The notes: generated by a model not told the origin, from the letters alone. Numbered from the stretch's first letter, positions 25,281-56,768 are shown. The stretch is DNA of 64,000 nt from a virus (IMGVR_UViG_3300030037_000008:47072-111071), one strand, 5' to 3'. Numbers and translations: made by a program.

Positions 25281-27119
25281 CTAATTATTGACACCTGTGT
25301 TATTAACTTTAATTGAATTAAATATCTCTACTGCCTTTATATAAAACATCATACAACGATTTATATTATCTTTATGTAAAGGAATCATAGATAAAAATAA
25401 TGTTGCAGTAATGAACTTGATTTCTCTAAGATCAAAACTACATTCTACTAACTTCTTTTCAAATGCATCTATAATAGATTGATTCTGATTGGATGTAAGT
25501 ATTTTATATTGAAAGTCTTTAGGATCATTGTTATAAATCATGTATACATCATTTGAAATGTAGTCATAGTTACCTACAATAGAATGATAAAGTTTGGCTA
25601 CATCATATCGTACATCTCCATAGATAGTCGGAACAGATGAATCATAATGTCCCTTAGGATCAATAACTTTCAAAGTATCTGAGTTAGAATCAAACAACAT
25701 GTTACCGAAGAATAAGTCGCCATGAACTATCTGATAGTACTTGTTATAATTAGATCCTTTGAATATTTCATCATACTGTTCTGCTATATAATCATAGTTA
25801 CTAACTCTTCCATCAAGTTCCTTGCCATTTACAGTTATTGCATTATTTAAATAAAGACTAAGGAATTCTGTATCATTACATATACCAGTACTTGAATCCA
25901 TAGTATCTGCAATACGATTATTTAGTTTAGTTAGTATAGCATCCTTAAACATTTTGTTTGCAGGTATTAATGGGACACTATTAATTGATTCTGACTTAAA
26001 TCTTCTTAACATAGTAAATGTAGTTTCAAACAATCTATTCCAGTACTTAACGTCATTATTGTCATACATAAACTTACTAGCACATGTTACATGATTGATG
26101 TATTCTAACTCATATTGTTTATGCTCAGAGAAGAATGAACTGTCGGCATTATAATCAATAAATTGCGGAGTAAAGATTCTTAGTCTATTAGGAAGATTAA
26201 GATACCATGCAATTTCCTTTTCAATTTTGTCTGCATTCTCTTTGGATGATTTGACAATTGTATTATGATCTGTTACAGATATCTCATTAAAGTACCGAGT
26301 CATGTTCTTCTTACATTTAATGTAAGTATCAATCTCACCAACATCTTCCCAATTCTTAGCACGTACTGTTCTAATTTTAAATCCTATCGCAATGTACTTC
26401 TCCATGATAGTAGAGATTTGAAATTCGCCGGCAATAGTCTTACCCGATTCTTTAGCCATCTTAATAGCTTTACGAAACATCATTGGGTTAGTAAAATTGT
26501 ATGCTCCAATAAGAGCTCCATTGTCAGTAGGAGTAACATCTTCCATAGAAGGTTTATCTAAGAATTCTGTAACGTGAGTAATATGTTTAGGACCTTCCAT
26601 CTCACCATTAGCACCAAATCTTACATGGCCAGTAAACATCATGTTAGTATCATCACCTTTGAGAATACACCAACGTGATTGATCTCCGTGTTCTACTTCT
26701 CTATAATAGATAGCATCATCAAAATCTTCAGGACTTTCATTAAGTAAAGTATCGCCTAAAAGAATGAACATGTTTCTAATGTTTGCAAACTTATCAATAA
26801 CTTTATCTACTGCTAGTTCAACTGCACCGCCTAATCCGCTCAGAGTGTCTTGAGTAACATAAGTAATCGAGTCAAATTGATCCTTATAGATAAGATCTAC
26901 GTACTCTTTAATGCTGTCTTCGTTATATCCAGTGACGATGCAGATATCTTTGTAATCATGCTTTTTAAAGTAATCTAACTGATGTCCAATGATCGGCTTA
27001 CCTTCAATTGGCACTAGACACTTAGCAAAGTTATCAGTCAGACTCAGCATTCTACTACCTCTACCAGCTGCAGGTATAATTGCTACTTTAACTCCGTTAT
27101 TAGAAATTAAGTTTATCAT
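25281..27119 (-). CDS. bifunctional sugar-1-phosphate nucleotidyltransferase (N-terminal) / APH-choline-kinase-fold sugar anomeric kinase (C-terminal)
   Basis: N-terminus KVAIIPAAGRGSRMLSLTDNFAKCLVPIEGKPII is the G-x-G-(T/S)-R-(L/M) signature of RmlA/GalU/GlmU-type NDP-sugar pyrophosphorylases. C-terminal region has the Brenner kinase motif IVHGDLFFGNMLF and a downstream IDPKG (D-x-G). 612 aa. Confidence 0.7.
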   Translation of the reverse strand: MINLISNNGVKVAIIPAAGRGSRMLSLTDNFAKCLVPIEGKPIIGHQLDYFKKHDYKDICIVTGYNEDSIKEYVDLIYKDQFDSITYVTQDTLSGLGGAVELAVDKVIDKFANIRNMFILLGDTLLNESPEDFDDAIYYREVEHGDQSRWCILKGDDTNMMFTGHVRFGANGEMEGPKHITHVTEFLDKPSMEDVTPTDNGALIGAYNFTNPMMFRKAIKMAKESGKTIAGEFQISTIMEKYIAIGFKIRTVRAKNWEDVGEIDTYIKCKKNMTRYFNEISVTDHNTIVKSSKENADKIEKEIAWYLNLPNRLRIFTPQFIDYNADSSFFSEHKQYELEYINHVTCASKFMYDNNDVKYWNRLFETTFTMLRRFKSESINSVPLIPANKMFKDAILTKLNNRIADTMDSSTGICNDTEFLSLYLNNAITVNGKELDGRVSNYDYIAEQYDEIFKGSNYNKYYQIVHGDLFFGNMLFDSNSDTLKVIDPKGHYDSSVPTIYGDVRYDVAKLYHSIVGNYDYISNDVYMIYNNDPKDFQYKILTSNQNQSIIDAFEKKLVECSFDLREIKFITATLFLSMIPLHKDNINRCMMFYIKAVEIFNSIKVNNTGVNN

Positions 27120-39563: not shown

Positions 39564-41048
39564 TTAGGTTGTTGCTACGTTGTGGCGAATCTCTTTATAA
39601 GAGTATTTCTTTAAGAGCACTCCATTTTCAAAGATAGGTACCATGAGATCTTCCAATTCAGGATACTCTTCTAATCTTACAGTAGTAATCACACCATCAA
39701 TTTTGACATTTTTAAGTCTGCCTCTCATAGAAGCTTTTGACTTATCTGCAGGTTCTTTGTAAACATCATGCCAATCTTCGCCAATCTTACGTTGTGCACT
39801 ACATTTGAAAGCAGAGCGCTGAGAGTCTCTATTTCCTGATGCCAAGTGGAGATTACCACCTTGTCCAACTAAGCAATTCTCCGCTGACCATTTATTCTCT
39901 AAGAGCATGTCATAGATGTTAATGATGTCATCATCTTTAAGACCGTCACCGTAAATGCATCCAACTGACGGGTGCAATACTTTATAGCCTTTATCATTTG
40001 TAGTATAACCAAATGTTTCTGATAGAGTTTCTACAATCCATAGTACTTGATCTTCTGCAGTGTCGCCCTTGAATCTTGGTGAATCCGGACGAACTACAAA
40101 TTTAGTAAGTGAATCTTTTGGGGCATGTTCCCAACGTTTAATGATAGCATCTTTGAAGGTGCCACATATCATGTTAGTTAGAGTTTCAACTACACCATAA
40201 GAATCTGATACATAACTGAGTACACCAGTAGGACTAACTTTGATGTTATGTGCCATGACAAGATGTTCTTTGCCTTTGCCTTCTGATGTAGTAATGCTGT
40301 GTTCATTTGCTCGTACTGAAAAGCAATAAGGTTCATTAATGAAGTCACCTTCATAGTGGCCATCGATCATATCAAGTGTCGGACCTAATGTGTCAGTACC
40401 CATTCCACCCGCTAGAATGTGAGCTGCTCCACAAATGGCAGCTTGTTCGTAACAGCTTGATCCTCTCATTCCAAAATCATGGAGCATAAATGGAGCAACA
40501 TCTTCAGCATAGTCACAACTTTCTTGAAGAGCTTTAAGAATAATCTTTTGTGTTACAGCTGACTTAGTAATTGTAAGACTGCCACCCCAAACCCATGTTG
40601 AAATTGTTTCAAAGTGATTAGTGATATCACGGAAAGCATCTAATGAAAGATTATCAGGATCCATGTTCTCTACTACAAATAAAGCATTACCTTTTCCTAC
40701 TGGTACAGCTACACCTTCAGGCATTGCTTTAATACGGATAGATAGTTTGCCACCATTCAAATCAACCAATTCTTGCCATGGACGAAATTTGAATGCTTCT
40801 TCTAAAGGTTTATTGAAGTGAAGCGGAAGAACTAATTTAGCTTCATCGATATGCTCTTGGAATACTACTCTGCCTGCCATATATTCTTCAATAGTATATT
40901 GGAGACCCATGAGACGTGTGTGATCATATTGAGCACCGGGGCGAGATGCAAAGTATGCACTTACACCATTGACATTGTCAAATCGAAGGAAGGGTTGTTG
41001 CAATTTATACGAGTCGCTTCCTAGGATTAGGTTTTTCTGTTTACGCAT
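39564..41048 (-). CDS. nadV: nicotinamide phosphoribosyltransferase (NAMPT/NadV, NAD+ salvage)
   Basis: 494 aa with NAMPT-family blocks: GSDSYKLQQP (the N-terminal substrate-binding SxSYK), FMLHDFGMRGSS, SVRANEHSITTSEG and VVRPDSPRFKGD. Strong promoter (TTGTAC-N17-TATAAT) and RBS AAGGAGTTAAA-ATG upstream. Confidence 0.8.
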   Translation of the reverse strand: MRKQKNLILGSDSYKLQQPFLRFDNVNGVSAYFASRPGAQYDHTRLMGLQYTIEEYMAGRVVFQEHIDEAKLVLPLHFNKPLEEAFKFRPWQELVDLNGGKLSIRIKAMPEGVAVPVGKGNALFVVENMDPDNLSLDAFRDITNHFETISTWVWGGSLTITKSAVTQKIILKALQESCDYAEDVAPFMLHDFGMRGSSCYEQAAICGAAHILAGGMGTDTLGPTLDMIDGHYEGDFINEPYCFSVRANEHSITTSEGKGKEHLVMAHNIKVSPTGVLSYVSDSYGVVETLTNMICGTFKDAIIKRWEHAPKDSLTKFVVRPDSPRFKGDTAEDQVLWIVETLSETFGYTTNDKGYKVLHPSVGCIYGDGLKDDDIINIYDMLLENKWSAENCLVGQGGNLHLASGNRDSQRSAFKCSAQRKIGEDWHDVYKEPADKSKASMRGRLKNVKIDGVITTVRLEEYPELEDLMVPIFENGVLLKKYSYKEIRHNVATT

Positions 41049-45991: not shown

Positions 45992-47965
45992 TTAACCTAG
46001 CAGTAAGCTAGGATCAATTACTACTTTACCACCATCAAGTTCAGCAACAGCCAAATCATTAGCGGCATCAATTTCAGCTTCCATTTCAGCGTCAGTTAAT
46101 CCAGAAGAATATCCACGATCTTTAGCATAAGACTTATTAAGCTCTGTAATGATCGGTGCCCACATTTCAGTGTCATCAATAAATTGAGATAGTCTGCGTT
46201 TCTTTTCAGGATCCGGACTAGACGGAACAGTATAGAAACTACCATGTTGAACAATATGTCCAAAACGTTTAGCATCTTCTACTAATCCAAAGTACTTCTT
46301 AGGACCTTGAGCATAGGAGAGGAACATTTCCGATTGATAGAAAGGTTTAACAATTCTGTTCTTAACTGTCAAGAATCTAAGGATAGATGCATTGAAGTGT
46401 TGACCTTCAGCTTTACCATTAGCATTCTTTTCATTTTTCTTAGAACATTGGATGATTAAGTGAGCAGCATAAACTACACCTCTACCACCACCCATTGGTT
46501 TAACTTTAGTAGCATGCATTGCAGCAGGATCATCATAAGTGTGGTTAATAAGAATACAAGAAGTATCTGATTTGAGAGCAGGAATAATAAGAGCTTTAAC
46601 TAAAGAGTTAATTTTCTTTGCTCTGCCACCCATCTCTGAAACTTGCTTACCTTTTTCAACAGCATCAACCATTGTCTTATCAGTTACTAGCATACCAAGT
46701 GAGTCAAGAATACAAAGGAACTTCGCATCTGGATTATCTTTCTTATATTCACTAAGCTTCTTATAAGTAGTTAGAAGTTTAACTGCACAATCTTCTACAG
46801 ATTCTACTAACACATGTTCGATCTTATCAGGATCACAACCACGTGATTCAAAGAATTCAACCAAGCCACCACCTTCAGAGTCGAAGTAGAAGATAACATC
46901 ATAGTCTTCTTCGTTCAATGCATTAGCTGCAATGTTAGCTGCGATAAAAGATTTACCTGAGTTGTGTGAAGCAATTCCACCAGCAAAGTATCTATGATTC
47001 TCATGAGCAACTTCGATATCATAGCACATCTCTTTTGTTTTTAGATCTTCTATGTGAGTAACTGCAGCAGGATATACTGATCCTTCAAGTTCAACTTTAG
47101 TAATGTCATACTCATTAAGATCTTTAACAAAGACGAATTTTTCAATACCTTCGTTTTCAGTATCAGTAAGTTGTAAAGCATGTTCAGCGGCACATTCAAG
47201 TGTAAGCTTACGTTCCTTTTCTTCAAACGTTCCATCTTCTTGTTCAACACTAAACTTGCTAGTAGTTGTAACAGACCAGATATCTTGTTCACCTTTCTCA
47301 AAGAAATTTGCTATACGAACTAAACCATCAGGACTTGATACAAATAATCCTTCATGGTTTCCATTTGCTAATAGCTTAATAGGAAGTTCTTTCTCACACA
47401 TCTGAGACATAAGCATTACTTTAATAAGAGTAAGGTTAGTAAGGTTTCTACCAATCCATTCATATAGAGTAATGTCTTTAGGACGATCTTTACTAAAACT
47501 TGCAGATAATAGTTTATTTGGGATAGAAGTTTGAGAAACAATCTCATCTGAAGTAAAACCAAATTCTACTAAAGTTTCAACTGCATGCATAAATGATTGA
47601 CCTTTACTAATATCAGAATGTTCAGCATAACCTTCTTGGTTCATATTTGCAAGATCTTGTTTATCTGAGTCAGCGACTACGTTAAGGTAGTGATCACTTG
47701 CGATAGCTTCAGTGTAATGATCCTCATTAAATAAAGATTTACCATACACATGGAGAAGAGTGTCTCCAGTGATACACTGTGATTCACCAGCAAGAATTAT
47801 AATTTTACCGGATGGAACACCTCTATCAGTACTACCAGAGATGATAGAGTTTAGAGCCATGTCTCCTGTGGAGATCCAATTCTTAATTACACCATAAGAT
47901 GATTCAGTGAATGATGCAGAATCTGTTTTCTTGCGGATGTCTTTCATTAGACTTTTTATAGACAT
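45992..47965 (-). CDS. uvsX: UvsX-type RecA-like recombinase interrupted by an intein
   Basis: Extein portions total ~385 aa. Walker A is split as ...IIILAGESQ | intein | SGKSFIAANIA. RecA-fold C-terminal half follows. Start taken at the ATG (MSIKSLMKD) with RBS AAAAAAGGAAAATAT-ATG, the same as frd and a-gt; the track ORF begins at a TTG at 48010. Confidence 0.75.
   Translation of the reverse strand: MSIKSLMKDIRKKTDSASFTESSYGVIKNWISTGDMALNSIISGSTDRGVPSGKIIILAGESQCITGDTLLHVYGKSLFNEDHYTEAIASDHYLNVVADSDKQDLANMNQEGYAEHSDISKGQSFMHAVETLVEFGFTSDEIVSQTSIPNKLLSASFSKDRPKDITLYEWIGRNLTNLTLIKVMLMSQMCEKELPIKLLANGNHEGLFVSSPDGLVRIANFFEKGEQDIWSVTTTSKFSVEQEDGTFEEKERKLTLECAAEHALQLTDTENEGIEKFVFVKDLNEYDITKVELEGSVYPAAVTHIEDLKTKEMCYDIEVAHENHRYFAGGIASHNSGKSFIAANIAANALNEEDYDVIFYFDSEGGGLVEFFESRGCDPDKIEHVLVESVEDCAVKLLTTYKKLSEYKKDNPDAKFLCILDSLGMLVTDKTMVDAVEKGKQVSEMGGRAKKINSLVKALIIPALKSDTSCILINHTYDDPAAMHATKVKPMGGGRGVVYAAHLIIQCSKKNEKNANGKAEGQHFNASILRFLTVKNRIVKPFYQSEMFLSYAQGPKKYFGLVEDAKRFGHIVQHGSFYTVPSSPDPEKKRRLSQFIDDTEMWAPIITELNKSYAKDRGYSSGLTDAEMEAEIDAANDLAVAELDGGKVVIDPSLLLG
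46961..47776 (-). mobile_element. intein (~272 aa) inserted in the uvsX P-loop
   Basis: Block A CITGDTLL begins with the required Cys. Block F/G MCYDIEVAHENHRYFAGGIASHN ends in HN followed by the Ser nucleophile of SGKS. The insertion splits the Walker A box GESQ/SGKS. No LAGLIDADG motif was recognised. Confidence 0.7.
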
Positions 47966-48011
47966 ATATTTTCCTTTTTTGTTATTGGTTTCATATAGTA
48001 TATAAAACAAA

Positions 48012-50462: not shown

Positions 50463-51269
50463 CTAAAATAGATGTAAGAAGATATATAAATCCTCTTCCA
50501 TGCCACCCATAGATATGAATTCATCTAGAATGTCATACACCCTGTCAACAGGGTATTCATTAAGATTTTTAAAGCACGTTTGAAAGTCTTCAAACATCTG
50601 ATGTATATTATCTGCGACAGGAATAGAAGCACTACGTTCACTAATATTTACACATACTGAATTGAATGCATTAATATAACTATCAATCACGTACATAATA
50701 CTAGCACGACAATCATCAGATTCTTTTAAGTGTTCTTCATAATTTTTATCTTCACCATCAGATGATCTACAATTTAAATAAGCATGAGCCTTAAAGAAAT
50801 CAGTGATGTATTTGTTAATATTACGTCTCTGTTTAAAGACACCTAGCTTAAAGTATGATTCTTCTATTAGACTAAGTTTAAAGTTAGATCCAAGTTTAGC
50901 ATTACGTACTTTAGTGACAGCAGTGATCTCTTCTTCATATACTAAGGTTGGATTAATAGCACCTTCATTAAACTCTTTCTCGGTACACTTGAGTGGTAGT
51001 GTGTAGATCTGATACTTAGTTTCGTGATACTGTTTGAATTGAATAATTTTCTCTTTACGTTTAACAACTAAATCTCTACCAAGCCATGCTGCATATAGAA
51101 TAGGAATAGAAAGCCTAACTGTATGTTTATACTCCTTATCTTTTAATTGTTTATTCTCTTTTAAATAGAAAGCAAATTTGGCATTAGGAATATCTACGAA
51201 TCGATTTACAAGAGACCAGATCTCCATACACTCAGGAAACTCTACTGAACCATCTTTATTTACTATCAT
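50463..51269 (-). CDS. hypothetical protein (268 aa)
   Basis: ORF only. Confidence 0.45.
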   Translation of the reverse strand: MIVNKDGSVEFPECMEIWSLVNRFVDIPNAKFAFYLKENKQLKDKEYKHTVRLSIPILYAAWLGRDLVVKRKEKIIQFKQYHETKYQIYTLPLKCTEKEFNEGAINPTLVYEEEITAVTKVRNAKLGSNFKLSLIEESYFKLGVFKQRRNINKYITDFFKAHAYLNCRSSDGEDKNYEEHLKESDDCRASIMYVIDSYINAFNSVCVNISERSASIPVADNIHQMFEDFQTCFKNLNEYPVDRVYDILDEFISMGGMEEDLYIFLHLF

Positions 51270-51742
51270 TATACTCTTTCCATTTGCATGATTGAAATTG
51301 CATTTTTAATTGACCATGGGTTTTCTTTAATTATCTTAACTGTTTCTGCTAAATATCTTACAACATCTGCTTGAATATCTATAGCATCTTTAAGTTTTTT
51401 AATTGATACATCTTTTTCAGCTGCAGCAATAGTAACATACTTAGGAACATGATCTCCTCCGTATTGTTCTACATAAGCATCTTGTAAAGTGTCCAATTTG
51501 TTTTCTAATTTCTTGAGGACATGCTGTTCTGTGTGGTGTTTAGTTACCCATGTGAGTGCTATTCTACTTGCAGCCATTGACCTTTCTTGTATATTAAATT
51601 CAGATAAATCAAGAGACTCGATAAGAGCTTGGTGTAACTTCTGCATCTTATCTGGTAATACGCTTTCGTAATTACTTTTGAGTATGTCAACTGATGCATC
51701 TGATAGACCTTCTATCTGGTCCATAGCGTGTTTATCTTCCAT
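51269..51742 (-). CDS. hypothetical protein (157 aa)
   Basis: ORF only. Confidence 0.45.
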   Translation of the reverse strand: MEDKHAMDQIEGLSDASVDILKSNYESVLPDKMQKLHQALIESLDLSEFNIQERSMAASRIALTWVTKHHTEQHVLKKLENKLDTLQDAYVEQYGGDHVPKYVTIAAAEKDVSIKKLKDAIDIQADVVRYLAETVKIIKENPWSIKNAISIMQMERV

Positions 51743-52106: not shown

Positions 52107-54092
52107 CTATCCTTTTAATGCCGTATGAATAATTGAATCGTAGATTTCGTCTTCACTTAATACATTGATGTTGAGACCTTTTATATCTGGAAAGGTGCTA
52201 TAATCTTTGAAGTGGGTAAAGTTTAGACTGTTGATTGCCATTTCAGGTTTCATCTGTCCTTTGATTTTTTTGTATCTGCTATAGATCATATTGTAATCAC
52301 TGATAGGATTTGTTAAGTCTCTTTCAGGTGTAAGAGAGTTACTAAACTTTGCTCTGTATGTATAACCATGTTGAACAATTGGCATGACCGGATTGTAATG
52401 TTCGTTCTGTTCGTATAAGAAACCTGCCATTGAAATTCGCATTCGCTTTGATAAGTCAAGAATGAATTCATATCTACCTTCAGACATATCATATTTCTTA
52501 ATAACTGATTCAATATGTGGCTTAATCTTTTTCTCTAGCATGAAATGATCTTTCACTTTTCTAAGAAAGCTAGTCTGGGAGAATATCATATCATTTGTAG
52601 AAAGACCATTCATAAATCTCATAACATGGGCATGTGAGGTAATAAGAATGTCAGTTGAATCAAGACTATCTAATCCTTTTATAATTGATGATTTTTTATC
52701 AGGGGCATATACAACTGTATTTTGAGTTTTAGTGTTGTGAGTTCTGAATTCATTTGATACTGCTATAATAAAAATAGCTAGATCAATTGAGCTACAGTAA
52801 TAATAAGGGATATTAGAAGAGGCACATTGAAAGGTAGTAGTGCTATACGGATCTGGTTGAGATACTAGAACATCATAGTTCTTAATAGATTCAACTGTTT
52901 TATTAACAGTTCGTCTTAGCATACATGTATTATCAATACCTTTAAACTTTTCGTTAATAAGCTTACCGAATTCATAAACTTTGTGAAGTTCAGGTTTACT
53001 CTTTTTAAGTTCAGCAAGAATATCTACTTCTGATTCACTACTGTAATAAGATTCTGTTCCTGTTAGTCCAATAAGCCGTGATGTCTGTATGATGATTGCT
53101 TTCTTATATTCCTTAAAAGATTCGAATAAGCGTTTCTCAATCACTGTTTCATTTGTTAAGTAGCGTTCTTCTATATCATAGCTGATAGATTTGCTTGTTA
53201 AAGCAATGTAAGTTGAATCTGATTTGTTGGTATACTCTTCGATAAAGAACTTATGTAGATTGAGATAGGATTCTTCTAATGTACATGCAGTTAGTAAATT
53301 GTTATGTGTGTCAGAGATATGCGATGTTGCTTCAGATAGAATTTTCATTTTACCTGTAAGTTCTGTGTAGCCATTGAACGATACTGTCCATTCTAATAAA
53401 GAAGATACAATTGTTGTAATGTCTTCATCACCTGTACTATCAGCAATTGCTGTTGCTAAATCTCCAATAGTAGTAAGCTCTCCGTAACCTTCGCCATGAA
53501 ATAAATCATAGTTATCAAACGTTTCAATTACAGACTCTAATGAAAACATAATTTCTTTAGTATCACCTGTTGAGTTGTGACTTTTAATAAGTTCTTTAAG
53601 AGAGTGATTAGCATTTACGAATGGGTTAATATCATCTACTCTAGTAGTGTTAATAATGCATGATGGTTTAATAATATCTAAGCGATCTTTAATAGATGTT
53701 AGACTATGTTTCATTGTCTTTTTGAATGCTTTCATTAGAGTTTGAGAGGCTCCAATACTTTGTTCTACTTCTGCTTTGTAATAGTCTACAAATTCTTTAA
53801 GAGTAGTAGTGTGATCAAATCTTTCATTGTAATTAAGAAAAGTGTTATCATAATCAAATGAAAGATCTAATGCATCTACATTATCAGATCCATAAGAGTA
53901 ATCATAGAATCTGAAGGTTGTTTCATTCAGCTTGAAAACTTGACCGTTAACCCATGGTGATGTTTTTTGATTAAGACTAAATACATGCACATCTTCATAT
54001 AAATAGTTTGACTCGGTACCTAAAGTTGCTAATAAACTTTGTGCCGTAAAATTATCACCAATAATTGCAAGAGTTGCGGGTTTCGTTTTCAT
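52107..54092 (-). CDS. large hypothetical protein (661 aa)
   Basis: Long uninterrupted ORF, RBS AAAAGGAAATTAAACATA-ATG. No motif recognised. Not obviously the gp52 topo subunit, as no GyrA-like active-site RY block was seen. Confidence 0.55.
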   Translation of the reverse strand: MKTKPATLAIIGDNFTAQSLLATLGTESNYLYEDVHVFSLNQKTSPWVNGQVFKLNETTFRFYDYSYGSDNVDALDLSFDYDNTFLNYNERFDHTTTLKEFVDYYKAEVEQSIGASQTLMKAFKKTMKHSLTSIKDRLDIIKPSCIINTTRVDDINPFVNANHSLKELIKSHNSTGDTKEIMFSLESVIETFDNYDLFHGEGYGELTTIGDLATAIADSTGDEDITTIVSSLLEWTVSFNGYTELTGKMKILSEATSHISDTHNNLLTACTLEESYLNLHKFFIEEYTNKSDSTYIALTSKSISYDIEERYLTNETVIEKRLFESFKEYKKAIIIQTSRLIGLTGTESYYSSESEVDILAELKKSKPELHKVYEFGKLINEKFKGIDNTCMLRRTVNKTVESIKNYDVLVSQPDPYSTTTFQCASSNIPYYYCSSIDLAIFIIAVSNEFRTHNTKTQNTVVYAPDKKSSIIKGLDSLDSTDILITSHAHVMRFMNGLSTNDMIFSQTSFLRKVKDHFMLEKKIKPHIESVIKKYDMSEGRYEFILDLSKRMRISMAGFLYEQNEHYNPVMPIVQHGYTYRAKFSNSLTPERDLTNPISDYNMIYSRYKKIKGQMKPEMAINSLNFTHFKDYSTFPDIKGLNINVLSEDEIYDSIIHTALKG

Positions 54093-54866: not shown

Positions 54867-56768
54867 TTACTTTTCTTCAAGTGCTAACCACTCTTTTCTA
54901 TCATCAGCTCTACCAGAATTAAATCCTAGATCTAAAAGCTCTACAGTTTCTTTAACATTGGAGTGAGTGATATCATATAAGTAGCTATCAATATTTTTAA
55001 AGTAATGTTTGAAGTCTTTAGATGTATGACCACCTAGACCTTTAAAGTATTTAGAAACAAACTTGAGATCAGGATTTTTCTCTTTCCATGCTTCGAAATC
55101 TGGTTCTGTTAAGAATTCTGCCATTGGTTCCTTAGCACTCCAAGTTTTCATTACTTTAATAAGAGGTAATCTTAAGTCTTGGAAGAAGTTAAGTTCCATT
55201 AATTCAGGCCAGAATTTTACGAACATATTAATCAACAAGAATTTAATGTGAGTTCCATCTACATCCGCATCACAGCAAATGATAAATTTGTTATATCGAA
55301 GTTGATCAAGTGATTTAACTTCTATACCAATCTTAAGGCCAATGATAACAATAAGATTTTTGAATTCTTCATTAAGAAGTAGTTTGTTTGGATCAATTCC
55401 ATTTACATTTACGAACTTACCTCTTAAAGGATAGCCTCCGTAAATAGATTTATCACAACTACCAATGAGACCACTGAGTGCTGATAGACCTTCTGTTGTT
55501 AATAGCTTTGCTTTAGTTCTATCTTTAGTTTCAGCATCAATAAGTTTAGCAATTTTACGAGGATTGAATCCATCTACATTCTTATTAAGTTTTCTAAGTT
55601 TAGCATTCTCTTCTTGTTTAGCTTTAAGCTCTACATAATCTACAATAGATTGAATAACATCAGTCTTAAGAATGTTTCTCATGAATGACTTAGGAAGTTC
55701 GAATGTAGTACCAAAGTTAGCTACTGTAGTAGTTAAAAGTGATTTAGTTTGAGAATCAAATTCAGGGTTAATGATTGTAGCATCAATGTAAAGTTTAATA
55801 AAGTTACGAATGATATTTGGCTTAACATCAATTTTATATTTCTTCTTTAGATAAGGTCTAACTTCTGCTATAATCTGATTGATAACATACTGTACGTGAG
55901 TTGAACCTGTGTCTGAACATGCAGATCCATTAACAAATGATACTACGTCAAATGATCCATTACTTGGAGCAATCGCAACTTTAAATCTACGATCTTCTGA
56001 TTCTTCATAGTAGAAGTCATCGATGAATAGTGATACATAATCTTTAAATGATTTGATTCTAATAAGATGTCCATTAATCTTGACTTGAATATTTGAATTA
56101 AGACCAGCCATGTCATATACACGCTTAGTAATTGCAGCTACAGTATCTTCATCAAGTTTAGTTCCAAGTCTTTCAAGATCTGGATAGAAAGTAATTTTAG
56201 TAAATCCTTTACAATCTTTAGCATCTTTTATTTGAGCTTCATCTCTTTCAAATAGATTGTTCTTGAATGTTTGTTTGAAATGTTTCTTTCCATCAGATGT
56301 TTCTACAGTAAATTTAGTAGAGAAGATATTAGTAAGAGTACTACCAACACCATTTGTACCAATCTGAGTACGCTCTTCATCATCGTTATAATTAGAACCA
56401 CATCGGAGACTAGAGAAGATCATTTCAGGAATCCATTGATCATACTCTTCATGCATTTCTACCGGTATGCCACCATTATCAAAGATAGAAATCCAACCTT
56501 TATCAATATCAAAATCTACTTTAATACGATTGAGATCTTTATTTCTTTTAGATTCATCTACGCTATTATCTAGAACTTCGGCTACCATTTTAATTAGAGC
56601 AGGGTTATATGTAAGATTTTTCTTTACGAACTTGTTAGATTCTTTATCCATCACCAGAGAATTCTCAAACTTAGTATCGTTAGTATTACCAAGATACATG
56701 TTACTTCTTTGTAGTACATGCTCAATGTCAGTAAGTTTTTTATACTTATCTTGATTAGATTTACTCAT
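54867..56768 (-). CDS. DNA topoisomerase II large subunit (GyrB-like ATPase + Toprim; T4 gp39 fused with the gp60 equivalent)
   Basis: GHKL ATPase motifs AEVLDNSVDE, FDNGGIPVE and QIGTNGVGSTLTN. Toprim EGxSA in LLTTEGLSALSGLIG. Also DADVDGTHIKFLLINMF. 633 aa. Confidence 0.8.
   Translation of the reverse strand: MSKSNQDKYKKLTDIEHVLQRSNMYLGNTNDTKFENSLVMDKESNKFVKKNLTYNPALIKMVAEVLDNSVDESKRNKDLNRIKVDFDIDKGWISIFDNGGIPVEMHEEYDQWIPEMIFSSLRCGSNYNDDEERTQIGTNGVGSTLTNIFSTKFTVETSDGKKHFKQTFKNNLFERDEAQIKDAKDCKGFTKITFYPDLERLGTKLDEDTVAAITKRVYDMAGLNSNIQVKINGHLIRIKSFKDYVSLFIDDFYYEESEDRRFKVAIAPSNGSFDVVSFVNGSACSDTGSTHVQYVINQIIAEVRPYLKKKYKIDVKPNIIRNFIKLYIDATIINPEFDSQTKSLLTTTVANFGTTFELPKSFMRNILKTDVIQSIVDYVELKAKQEENAKLRKLNKNVDGFNPRKIAKLIDAETKDRTKAKLLTTEGLSALSGLIGSCDKSIYGGYPLRGKFVNVNGIDPNKLLLNEEFKNLIVIIGLKIGIEVKSLDQLRYNKFIICCDADVDGTHIKFLLINMFVKFWPELMELNFFQDLRLPLIKVMKTWSAKEPMAEFLTEPDFEAWKEKNPDLKFVSKYFKGLGGHTSKDFKHYFKNIDSYLYDITHSNVKETVELLDLGFNSGRADDRKEWLALEEK

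Follow-up and report, generated by a model that had tools for sequence, protein, structure and literature searches.

A 64,000-nucleotide stretch of viral DNA (IMGVR_UViG_3300030037_000008:47072-111071; hereafter the window, with positions counted from its first letter) encodes on its minus strand a UvsX recombinase whose ATP-binding loop is interrupted by an intein. Sequence comparisons identify the 272-residue insert as a real intein within the Walker A motif (P-loop) of UvsX, belonging to the family of the naturally split intein VidaL, and we put the probability that it is an active, cis-splicing class-1 intein at roughly 80%. Its distinguishing feature is a segment of about 110 residues, consisting of an acidic stretch and a small helical bundle, located at the position where VidaL is split. 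On balance we favor a Cro/Xre-type helix-turn-helix (HTH) identity for the bundle, as in the C-terminal intein fragments (IntC) of some split relatives.

An intein within the Walker A motif of UvsX

The open reading frame (ORF) spans positions 45992-48010 of the minus strand, which also carries all features of the gene described below. The uvsX precursor is encoded inside it (45992-47965; 657 amino acids and a stop) and its most plausible start is the ATG at 47965 (MSIKS...), preceded by AAAGGAAAATAT. The N-extein (47777-47965), comprising 63 residues, ends in ...ILAGESQ and provides the first four residues of the Walker A motif GxxxxGK[ST]; the C-extein (45995-46960), comprising 322 residues, starts at Ser+1 (SGKSFIAAN...) and provides the remaining Walker A residues together with the RecA core. 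Between them, ...GKIIILAGESQ is followed by 272 residues, running from CITGDTLL to ...YDIEVAHENHRYFAGGIASHN, after which the recombinase resumes with SGKSFIAANIA. The intein opens with the codon TGT (47774-47776; Cys1) and closes with AAC (46961-46963), and TCA (Ser) follows at +1, in exact agreement with the limits of 46961-47776 in the original prediction, which a model had made from the DNA alone.

The host gene product is, as judged by profile and structure-sequence matches, a UvsX/RecA-family recombinase. With the insert excised, the 385-residue sequence matched the Pfam RecA family at 32.9 bits (E 6e-8, cutoff 27), whereas with the insert kept the score was 18.1 bits, below the cutoff. 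The spliced sequence also matched the solved UvsX structures 9gbg (E 3e-36) and 7z3m (E 8e-32) as well as T4 UvsX (3io5, E 8e-24), the last of which had been proposed as a check, and the GESQSGKS of the spliced product aligned with the Walker A sequence GPESSGKT of Escherichia coli RecA. In a collection of 5.8 billion proteins, the nearest homologues, P0009 (61% identity) and P0010 (56%), are intein-free proteins of 375-377 residues. Their P-loop stretches are uninterrupted (...LGGESQSGKSFIAANLAADALN... and ...GGESQSGKSFIAAN..., i.e. LGGESQSGKS), the same reading that excision gives in the window, as had been anticipated. The exteins are colinear with both homologues across the junction, and the in-frame insertion is missing from both. 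The insertion is therefore exactly delimited, dispensable, and placed so that it divides the ATP-binding loop.

The terminal requirements of a class-1 intein are all present, namely Cys1, His271-Asn272 and Ser+1. Residues 1-13 (CITGDTLLHVYGK; 47738-47776) cover block A, whose nucleophile is Cys1, as well as the first strand or strands of the Hint fold, and are the counterpart of the 16-residue N-terminal fragment (IntN) of VidaL-type split inteins. In an AlphaFold model computed from an eight-row multiple sequence alignment, one row of which was the split relative P0125, a strand was predicted at residues 7-13 with a pLDDT (predicted local distance difference test) of 88. Residues 125-272 (46961-47404) form the Hint core, which has the horseshoe fold and an extra β-hairpin at about residues 167-190. 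It contains the block B histidine, His199 (codon 47180-47182), the block F aspartate, Asp253 (47018-47020), and block G, His271-Asn272 (46961-46966). In a 43-sequence family alignment, His199 and Asp253 are invariant columns, and all catalytic and family-invariant residues are kept in the window intein. Together with the RecA match that appears only after excision, these residues bear out the central claim of the original prediction, that an intein splits the UvsX Walker A P-loop.

A known site: VidaL and its relatives

Inteins in general occur more often in P-loops than at any other site (PMC4760082; PMC4513877), and the UvsX P-loop is an insertion site known already from the engineered intein VidaL, which is naturally split and occupies the same position. 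The novelty implied for the site in the original prediction was thus too high, as it is the VidaL site and occurs in published phage genomes. The Hint core is homologous to the VidaL family (phmmer E 2.7e-6; hhalign E 1e-17 to 5e-19), and the insertion falls between Walker A residues 4 and 5, with the junctions (slashes) reading GESQ/C...HN/SGKS in the window and GESG/C...HN/SGKS in phage PA5oct and about 100 other loci. Searching phage genomes with the intein by tblastn gave matches in Salicola phage SCTP-2 and in the PA5oct group of jumbo phages, and scans of IMG/VR and JGI data yielded 106 further loci, 30 of them contiguous and about 70 split, nearly all with SGKS from the +1 position. The IntC of one of these (L019) shares about 98% identity with the PDB chain of VidaL, which itself retains the native extein residues SGK; from these two observations we identify VidaL as a UvsX P-loop intein, a link drawn by comparing sequences. 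Another copy lies on a contig with the name LV_Brine (L082). VidaL is split at a position termed S1, after β2, leaving an IntN of 16 residues, and splices in trans with a half-life of about 1 min (PMC13014065).

In PA5oct, uvsX is fractured into gp276, gp275 and gp274 (NC_071039.1; L001 754-3760). The product of gp276, labeled hypothetical, comprises the N-extein and a 16-residue IntN (...FAGESG/CLPETAKVKIRLSKKQS, then a stop); gp275, also labeled hypothetical, is a free-standing endonuclease-like ORF with the motif ...IEFYGNFWH...; and gp274, annotated as a UvsX-like recombinase and detected by mass spectrometry, begins with an IntC of about 127 residues followed by the C-extein. The annotation of the record does not mention an intein. 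SCTP-2 gene 204 (MF360958.1; L002 2444-4414), labeled as a hypothetical protein, is a UvsX with two inteins, the first being a 143-residue P-loop mini-intein (...FAGDSG/CLPEDA...GIVSHN/SGKSF...) and the second lying further along the protein (...ISGG/CLVADTDIL...VVSHN/SGQIFASS). These annotations can accordingly be corrected: SCTP-2 gp204 and PA5oct gp276/gp274 are intein-containing or fractured uvsX genes that have been labeled hypothetical or treated as ordinary.

A second site also occurs nearer to the window sequence. P0011, a 542-residue protein from an ENA metagenome that belongs to the same UvsX clade, has an intein-free P-loop and carries an intein of about 157 residues at a second UvsX site (...GLRAKL/CVHGDTDVL...DNIVSHN/CNNLVKG...), so that there are at least two intein insertion points within the UvsX clade of the window. 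The same intein family (YD[FI]EV.H.NHRY...SHN) was also observed in the P-loops of several phage ATPases, with Ser, Thr or Cys at +1. On our reading, the candidates include PhoH-like proteins with a C-extein starting TGKT... (L011, L062) and a large terminase-like protein (P0006); P0007 is another P-loop ATPase.

We infer a splicing mechanism for the window intein because every catalytic position is conserved with the experimentally active VidaL. In the 657-residue precursor, the broken Walker A motif would preclude ATP binding, leaving the protein inert. Once the Hint domain has folded, Cys1 would undergo an N-S acyl shift, Ser+1 would attack the resulting thioester (transesterification), and Asn272 would cyclize with the help of His271, with His199 and Asp253 assisting. 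The products would be a 385-residue UvsX with an intact GESQSGKS and a free 272-residue intein, and the ligated UvsX would contain the junction peptide ...ILAGESQSGKSFIAANIAANALNEEDYDVIFYFDSEGGGLVEFFESR.

A 110-residue insertion at the S1 position

The distance from Cys1 to the (T/S)PDG strand is 147 residues in the window intein, compared with 37-51 residues in all 30 contiguous relatives. In split relatives, Met1 lies 25-37 residues from TPDG, or 57-82 residues in the 19 loci with an N-terminal extension. The 147-residue distance indicates that about 110 residues (roughly 14-124) are inserted exactly at S1, i.e. between block A and the TPDG strand, and not in the place between blocks B and F that endonucleases canonically occupy. 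In the fractured uvsX genes, S1 is also the location of the free-standing endonuclease gene. The suggestion that this could be a mini-intein does not hold, since an intein of 272 residues with some 110 non-Hint residues between blocks A and B exceeds a Hint domain of about 130-200 residues. Nor is the intein divided into separate IntN (about 16 residues) and IntC ORFs, as a single uninterrupted ORF crosses the S1 position.

The insert begins with an acidic segment (residues 14-58; 47603-47737) with a net charge of about -8, which is predicted to be disordered; residues 15-58 had pLDDT values below 50 in the model and are probably disordered. It is followed by a small helical bundle (residues 59-124; 47405-47602), probably an HTH of the Cro/Xre type. 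Helices were predicted at residues 54-71, 76-82, 87-93, 104-111 and 115-123, with the bundle at about 59-113 reaching pLDDT values of 55-68 and the last helix falling within a low-confidence stretch (114-124). A very low-confidence single-sequence AlphaFold prediction (pLDDT 33) contained four of these helices, the last one (115-123) being absent.

No other relative that we found has an S1 insertion of about 110 residues. In an exhaustive phmmer search of 1.84 billion representative proteins, only the protein itself covered the insert region, all other matches being to the C-terminal Hint part; apparent matches of the insert to P0002 and P0003, which are low-complexity repeat proteins, were judged spurious. 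Neither the intein nor the HTH-IntC part of P0125 matched anything in word-indexed protein searches, Pfam and PHROGs recognized nothing on the insert, and none of the viral models in a BFVD fold search spanned the Hint core together with the helical insert (TMq ≤0.43). In a limited literature search, we found no description of an S1 insertion in a contiguous intein or of HTH-type S1 extensions in split ones.

An 11-nt direct repeat (AAAGATTTACC), exact and in frame, occurs at 46947-46957, where it encodes G-K-S-F in the P-loop part of the C-extein, and 786 nt away at 47733-47743, where it encodes G-K-S-L (intein residues 12-15) precisely at the point where the insert begins. The window contains just these two copies, against 0.05 expected, and the repeat is suggestive of a recombination scar; repeats of equal length arise in 31% of codon-shuffled regions, so that it is not significant. 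We also considered the signature of a nested mobile element and rejected it, as there is no shift in composition (GC content 34% in the intein, 37% in the extein and 33% in the window) and this insignificant repeat is the sole exact flanking one.

Probable identity of the insert and alternative explanations

The HTH assignment draws on the split relatives. The IntC ORF of P0125, which belongs to a fractured gene with an endonuclease upstream and an extein 42% identical to that of the window, begins with a Pfam HTH_3 domain (26.3 bits, cutoff 23), and that of L047 begins with HTH_26 (22.6, cutoff 22). These HTHs are located at the same S1 position, MAFFT aligns them with the insert segment ...VETLVEFGFTSDEIVSQTSIPNKLLSAS..., and the real insert outscores 98-99.5% of its shuffles against hidden Markov models built from the HTH-type extensions (p ~0.01). 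Several points weigh against this assignment. Each supporting line is weak and broader profiles are insignificant, no HTH family of the curated Pfam profiles matches the insert at E values up to 10, the P0125 row in the alignment may have biased the model, and the segment is not basic. Furthermore, the insert gave a weak PDB match to the FNIP-repeat protein Crov588 of CroV, with a full-sequence E value of 5e-6. The insert could be something other than an HTH, be it a novel and very small nuclease, an FNIP- or leucine-rich-repeat-like segment, or a functionless but tolerated spacer. A loose H..N..H pattern in the linker, the Crov588 match, an HTH signal of only p ~0.01, and the lack of any Pfam or PHROGs match or phmmer homologue among 1.84e9 proteins all point this way, and we regard it as a serious though clearly less probable option. 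The FNIP identity in particular was judged an artefact of summing repeat alignments that are individually insignificant, and is kept only as part of this alternative. A 40-60-residue helical N-terminal extension at S1 is also present in further IntC-first ORFs (L011, L028, L034, L044, L062, L073, L077, L095, L101, L102, L107, L109 and P0008, in addition to L047 and P0125); apart from P0125 and L047, none passes the Pfam cutoffs, L107 falling just below and the others being unrecognized.

With regard to activity, the element could be a real intein that no longer splices, inactivated by the S1 insertion or by drift, with this uvsX copy a non-functional relic. The large insertion is unique, the intein shares only about 30% identity with any relative, and its -1 residue is Gln instead of Gly. 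However, Gln also occupies that P-loop position in the intein-free homologues of the clade and is therefore native. The 657-codon frame is unbroken in a genome of 33% GC, the catalytic and family-invariant residues are all retained, the extein keeps all RecA motifs and reaches 61% identity with intein-free homologues, and a gene for the partner protein UvsY is present, which together make a dead intein quite unlikely. We consider it only slightly less improbable that the intein and its extra domain act as a post-translational switch, holding the UvsX ATPase off until a redox, DNA or infection-timing condition is fulfilled. An intein at this place in the P-loop necessarily leaves the precursor inactive, Cys1 could in principle respond to redox conditions, and there are precedents in the clustering of inteins in P-loops (PMC4760082) and in the P-loop intein of Pyrococcus RadA, whose splicing is regulated by the extein and for which a conditional splicing switch has been proposed (PMC4513877). 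Relatives of the VidaL family, however, splice very fast, the intein is dispensable given the intein-free homologues in the clade, and nothing in the sequence bears on such a role, which in any case is compatible with an active intein. Finally, the 272 residues could be a lineage-specific UvsX domain that is retained in the mature protein, an outcome that had been named as fatal to the intein interpretation. We instead found a Hint fold and homology to the VidaL family, and this explanation is effectively refuted.

Mobility and origin of the insertion

The active-intein interpretation leaves the role of the S1 module to be considered. Motif searches for LAGLIDADG, GIY-YIG and PD-(D/E)xK found none in the intein, and there was no nuclease match in Pfam or PHROGs, no HNH- or Vsr-like nuclease domain, and no domain between blocks B and F. 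The absence of a LAGLIDADG motif had been correctly noted from the start. Nor is the element recognizable as a degenerate LAGLIDADG intein, given the same result and the extra residues being at S1 and not at the canonical site. None of the free-standing endonucleases of the fractured relatives has a counterpart in the 64-kb window (tblastn), and a search for a nuclease remnant, comparing the linker and insert with 2003 ORFs from all fetched loci, gave nothing below E 0.9. As no nuclease was found, the element is probably not autonomously mobile.

The element may represent the HTH-bearing split inteins in fused or pre-fracture form, or what is left of a homing module that has been lost. The contiguous form may have given rise to the split inteins with an HTH, or have arisen by re-fusion from one of them. 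Its S1 module could have served DNA binding or regulation in a homing apparatus, the nuclease of which is lost or encoded elsewhere, or it could be a neutral remnant. A more specific and speculative proposal, which we hold to be doubtful, is that the helical module is the DNA-binding domain of a VidaL-type homing apparatus, recognizing uvsX P-loop DNA and cooperating with or regulating a free-standing endonuclease that acts in trans. If this were true, the window intein would represent the missing unsplit form, ancestral or re-fused, S1 splits would arise at the insertion points of homing modules, and S1 would be a second, previously unrecognized domain-insertion site of the Hint fold, with the corollary that it takes a 110-residue insertion while cis-splicing is kept.

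The UvsX P-loop intein itself is a further member of a known and experimentally exploited family, and as such changes little. Its S1 insertion, on the other hand, constitutes a new architecture within the VidaL family, linking contiguous with atypically split inteins and bearing on the origin of fractured genes and atypical splits. If the precursor splices, the Hint fold accepts a large insertion in the S1 loop, which would be useful for the design of conditional or domain-inserted inteins.

Genome context

Terminator-like hairpins flank uvsX upstream (48038-48009) and downstream (45984-45959) on the minus strand, with none inside the gene (3 observed in the region, 0.9 expected), suggesting that uvsX is a transcription unit of its own. 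The UvsY-like recombination mediator is encoded about 3.3 kb upstream (51269-51742, minus strand; PHROG 231, E 5e-9), and most of the intervening ORFs match neither Pfam nor PHROGs. Further upstream, a 661-residue ORF without a Pfam or PHROG match (52107-54092, minus strand) adjoins the topoisomerase II large subunit gene (54867-56768), roughly where a relative contig (L067), the one that carries P0009, has the topoisomerase II medium subunit (PF00521). Although the tripeptide H-N-[CST] occurs twice in this ORF, it showed no Hint signal.

The window appears to derive from an uncultured jumbo phage lineage. Among 50,697 phage records, we found no nucleotide match for the gene or for 22 kb of the window, which indicates that the genome has no close cultured relative, and its topoisomerase II shares only about 44% identity with the enzymes of the jumbo phages RsoM2USA and pf16. 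NAMPT (39564-41048) and a fusion protein with a nucleotidyl-transferase (25281-27119) are also encoded in the window. P0001 is located on a 255,591-bp contig.

Comparison with known inteins

Among inteins of RecA-family proteins, the P-loop "site c" inteins of Pyrococcus horikoshii RadA and E. coli RecA are unrelated in sequence to the window intein. Site c reportedly lies at the end of the P-loop, after Lys (GK/T), three residues downstream of the window position. The RecA intein of Mycobacterium tuberculosis (PI-MtuI) occupies a different site, away from the P-loop, and has a LAGLIDADG endonuclease in the canonical place between blocks B and F, a domain with no counterpart in the window intein. 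Small insertions in the N-terminal region are tolerated by the Hint fold in Aes123 PolB1 and similar inteins (PMC13014065), although in Aes123 PolB1 these are two extra strands at S2, whereas the window intein has a linker and helical domain of about 110 residues at S1.

The remaining relatives share both site and family with the window intein. The fractured uvsX genes with a free-standing endonuclease (PA5oct, L006, L009, L047, and P0125 on L066) consist of three ORFs, encoding the N-extein with IntN, the endonuclease, and IntC with the C-extein, as opposed to the single ORF of the window; this type of arrangement has been described for other genes (Dassa et al. 2009, PMC2677866). The contiguous UvsX P-loop mini-inteins (for example SCTP-2 gene 204, L003, L004, L008, L015, L025, L029 and L031), inserted at G-x-S-G/C...SHN/SGKS, measure 133-152 residues compared with 272 in the window, with a Cys1-to-TPDG distance of 37-51 versus 147 residues. 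VidaL (PDB 6vgv/6vgw, from a metagenome) has a UvsX host, the same insertion point in Walker A, SGKS from +1 and a homologous Hint core, and shares with the window intein Cys1, Ser+1, the block B motif A-x-x-H, the block F motif CYD[IF]EV.H.NHRY and the block G motif SHN, at about 24-34% identity. It differs in being made of two chains that act in trans, a 16-residue IntN and an IntC of about 123 residues, while the window intein is a single chain with an additional β-hairpin (residues ~167-190) and with about 110 residues inserted precisely at the position where VidaL is split.
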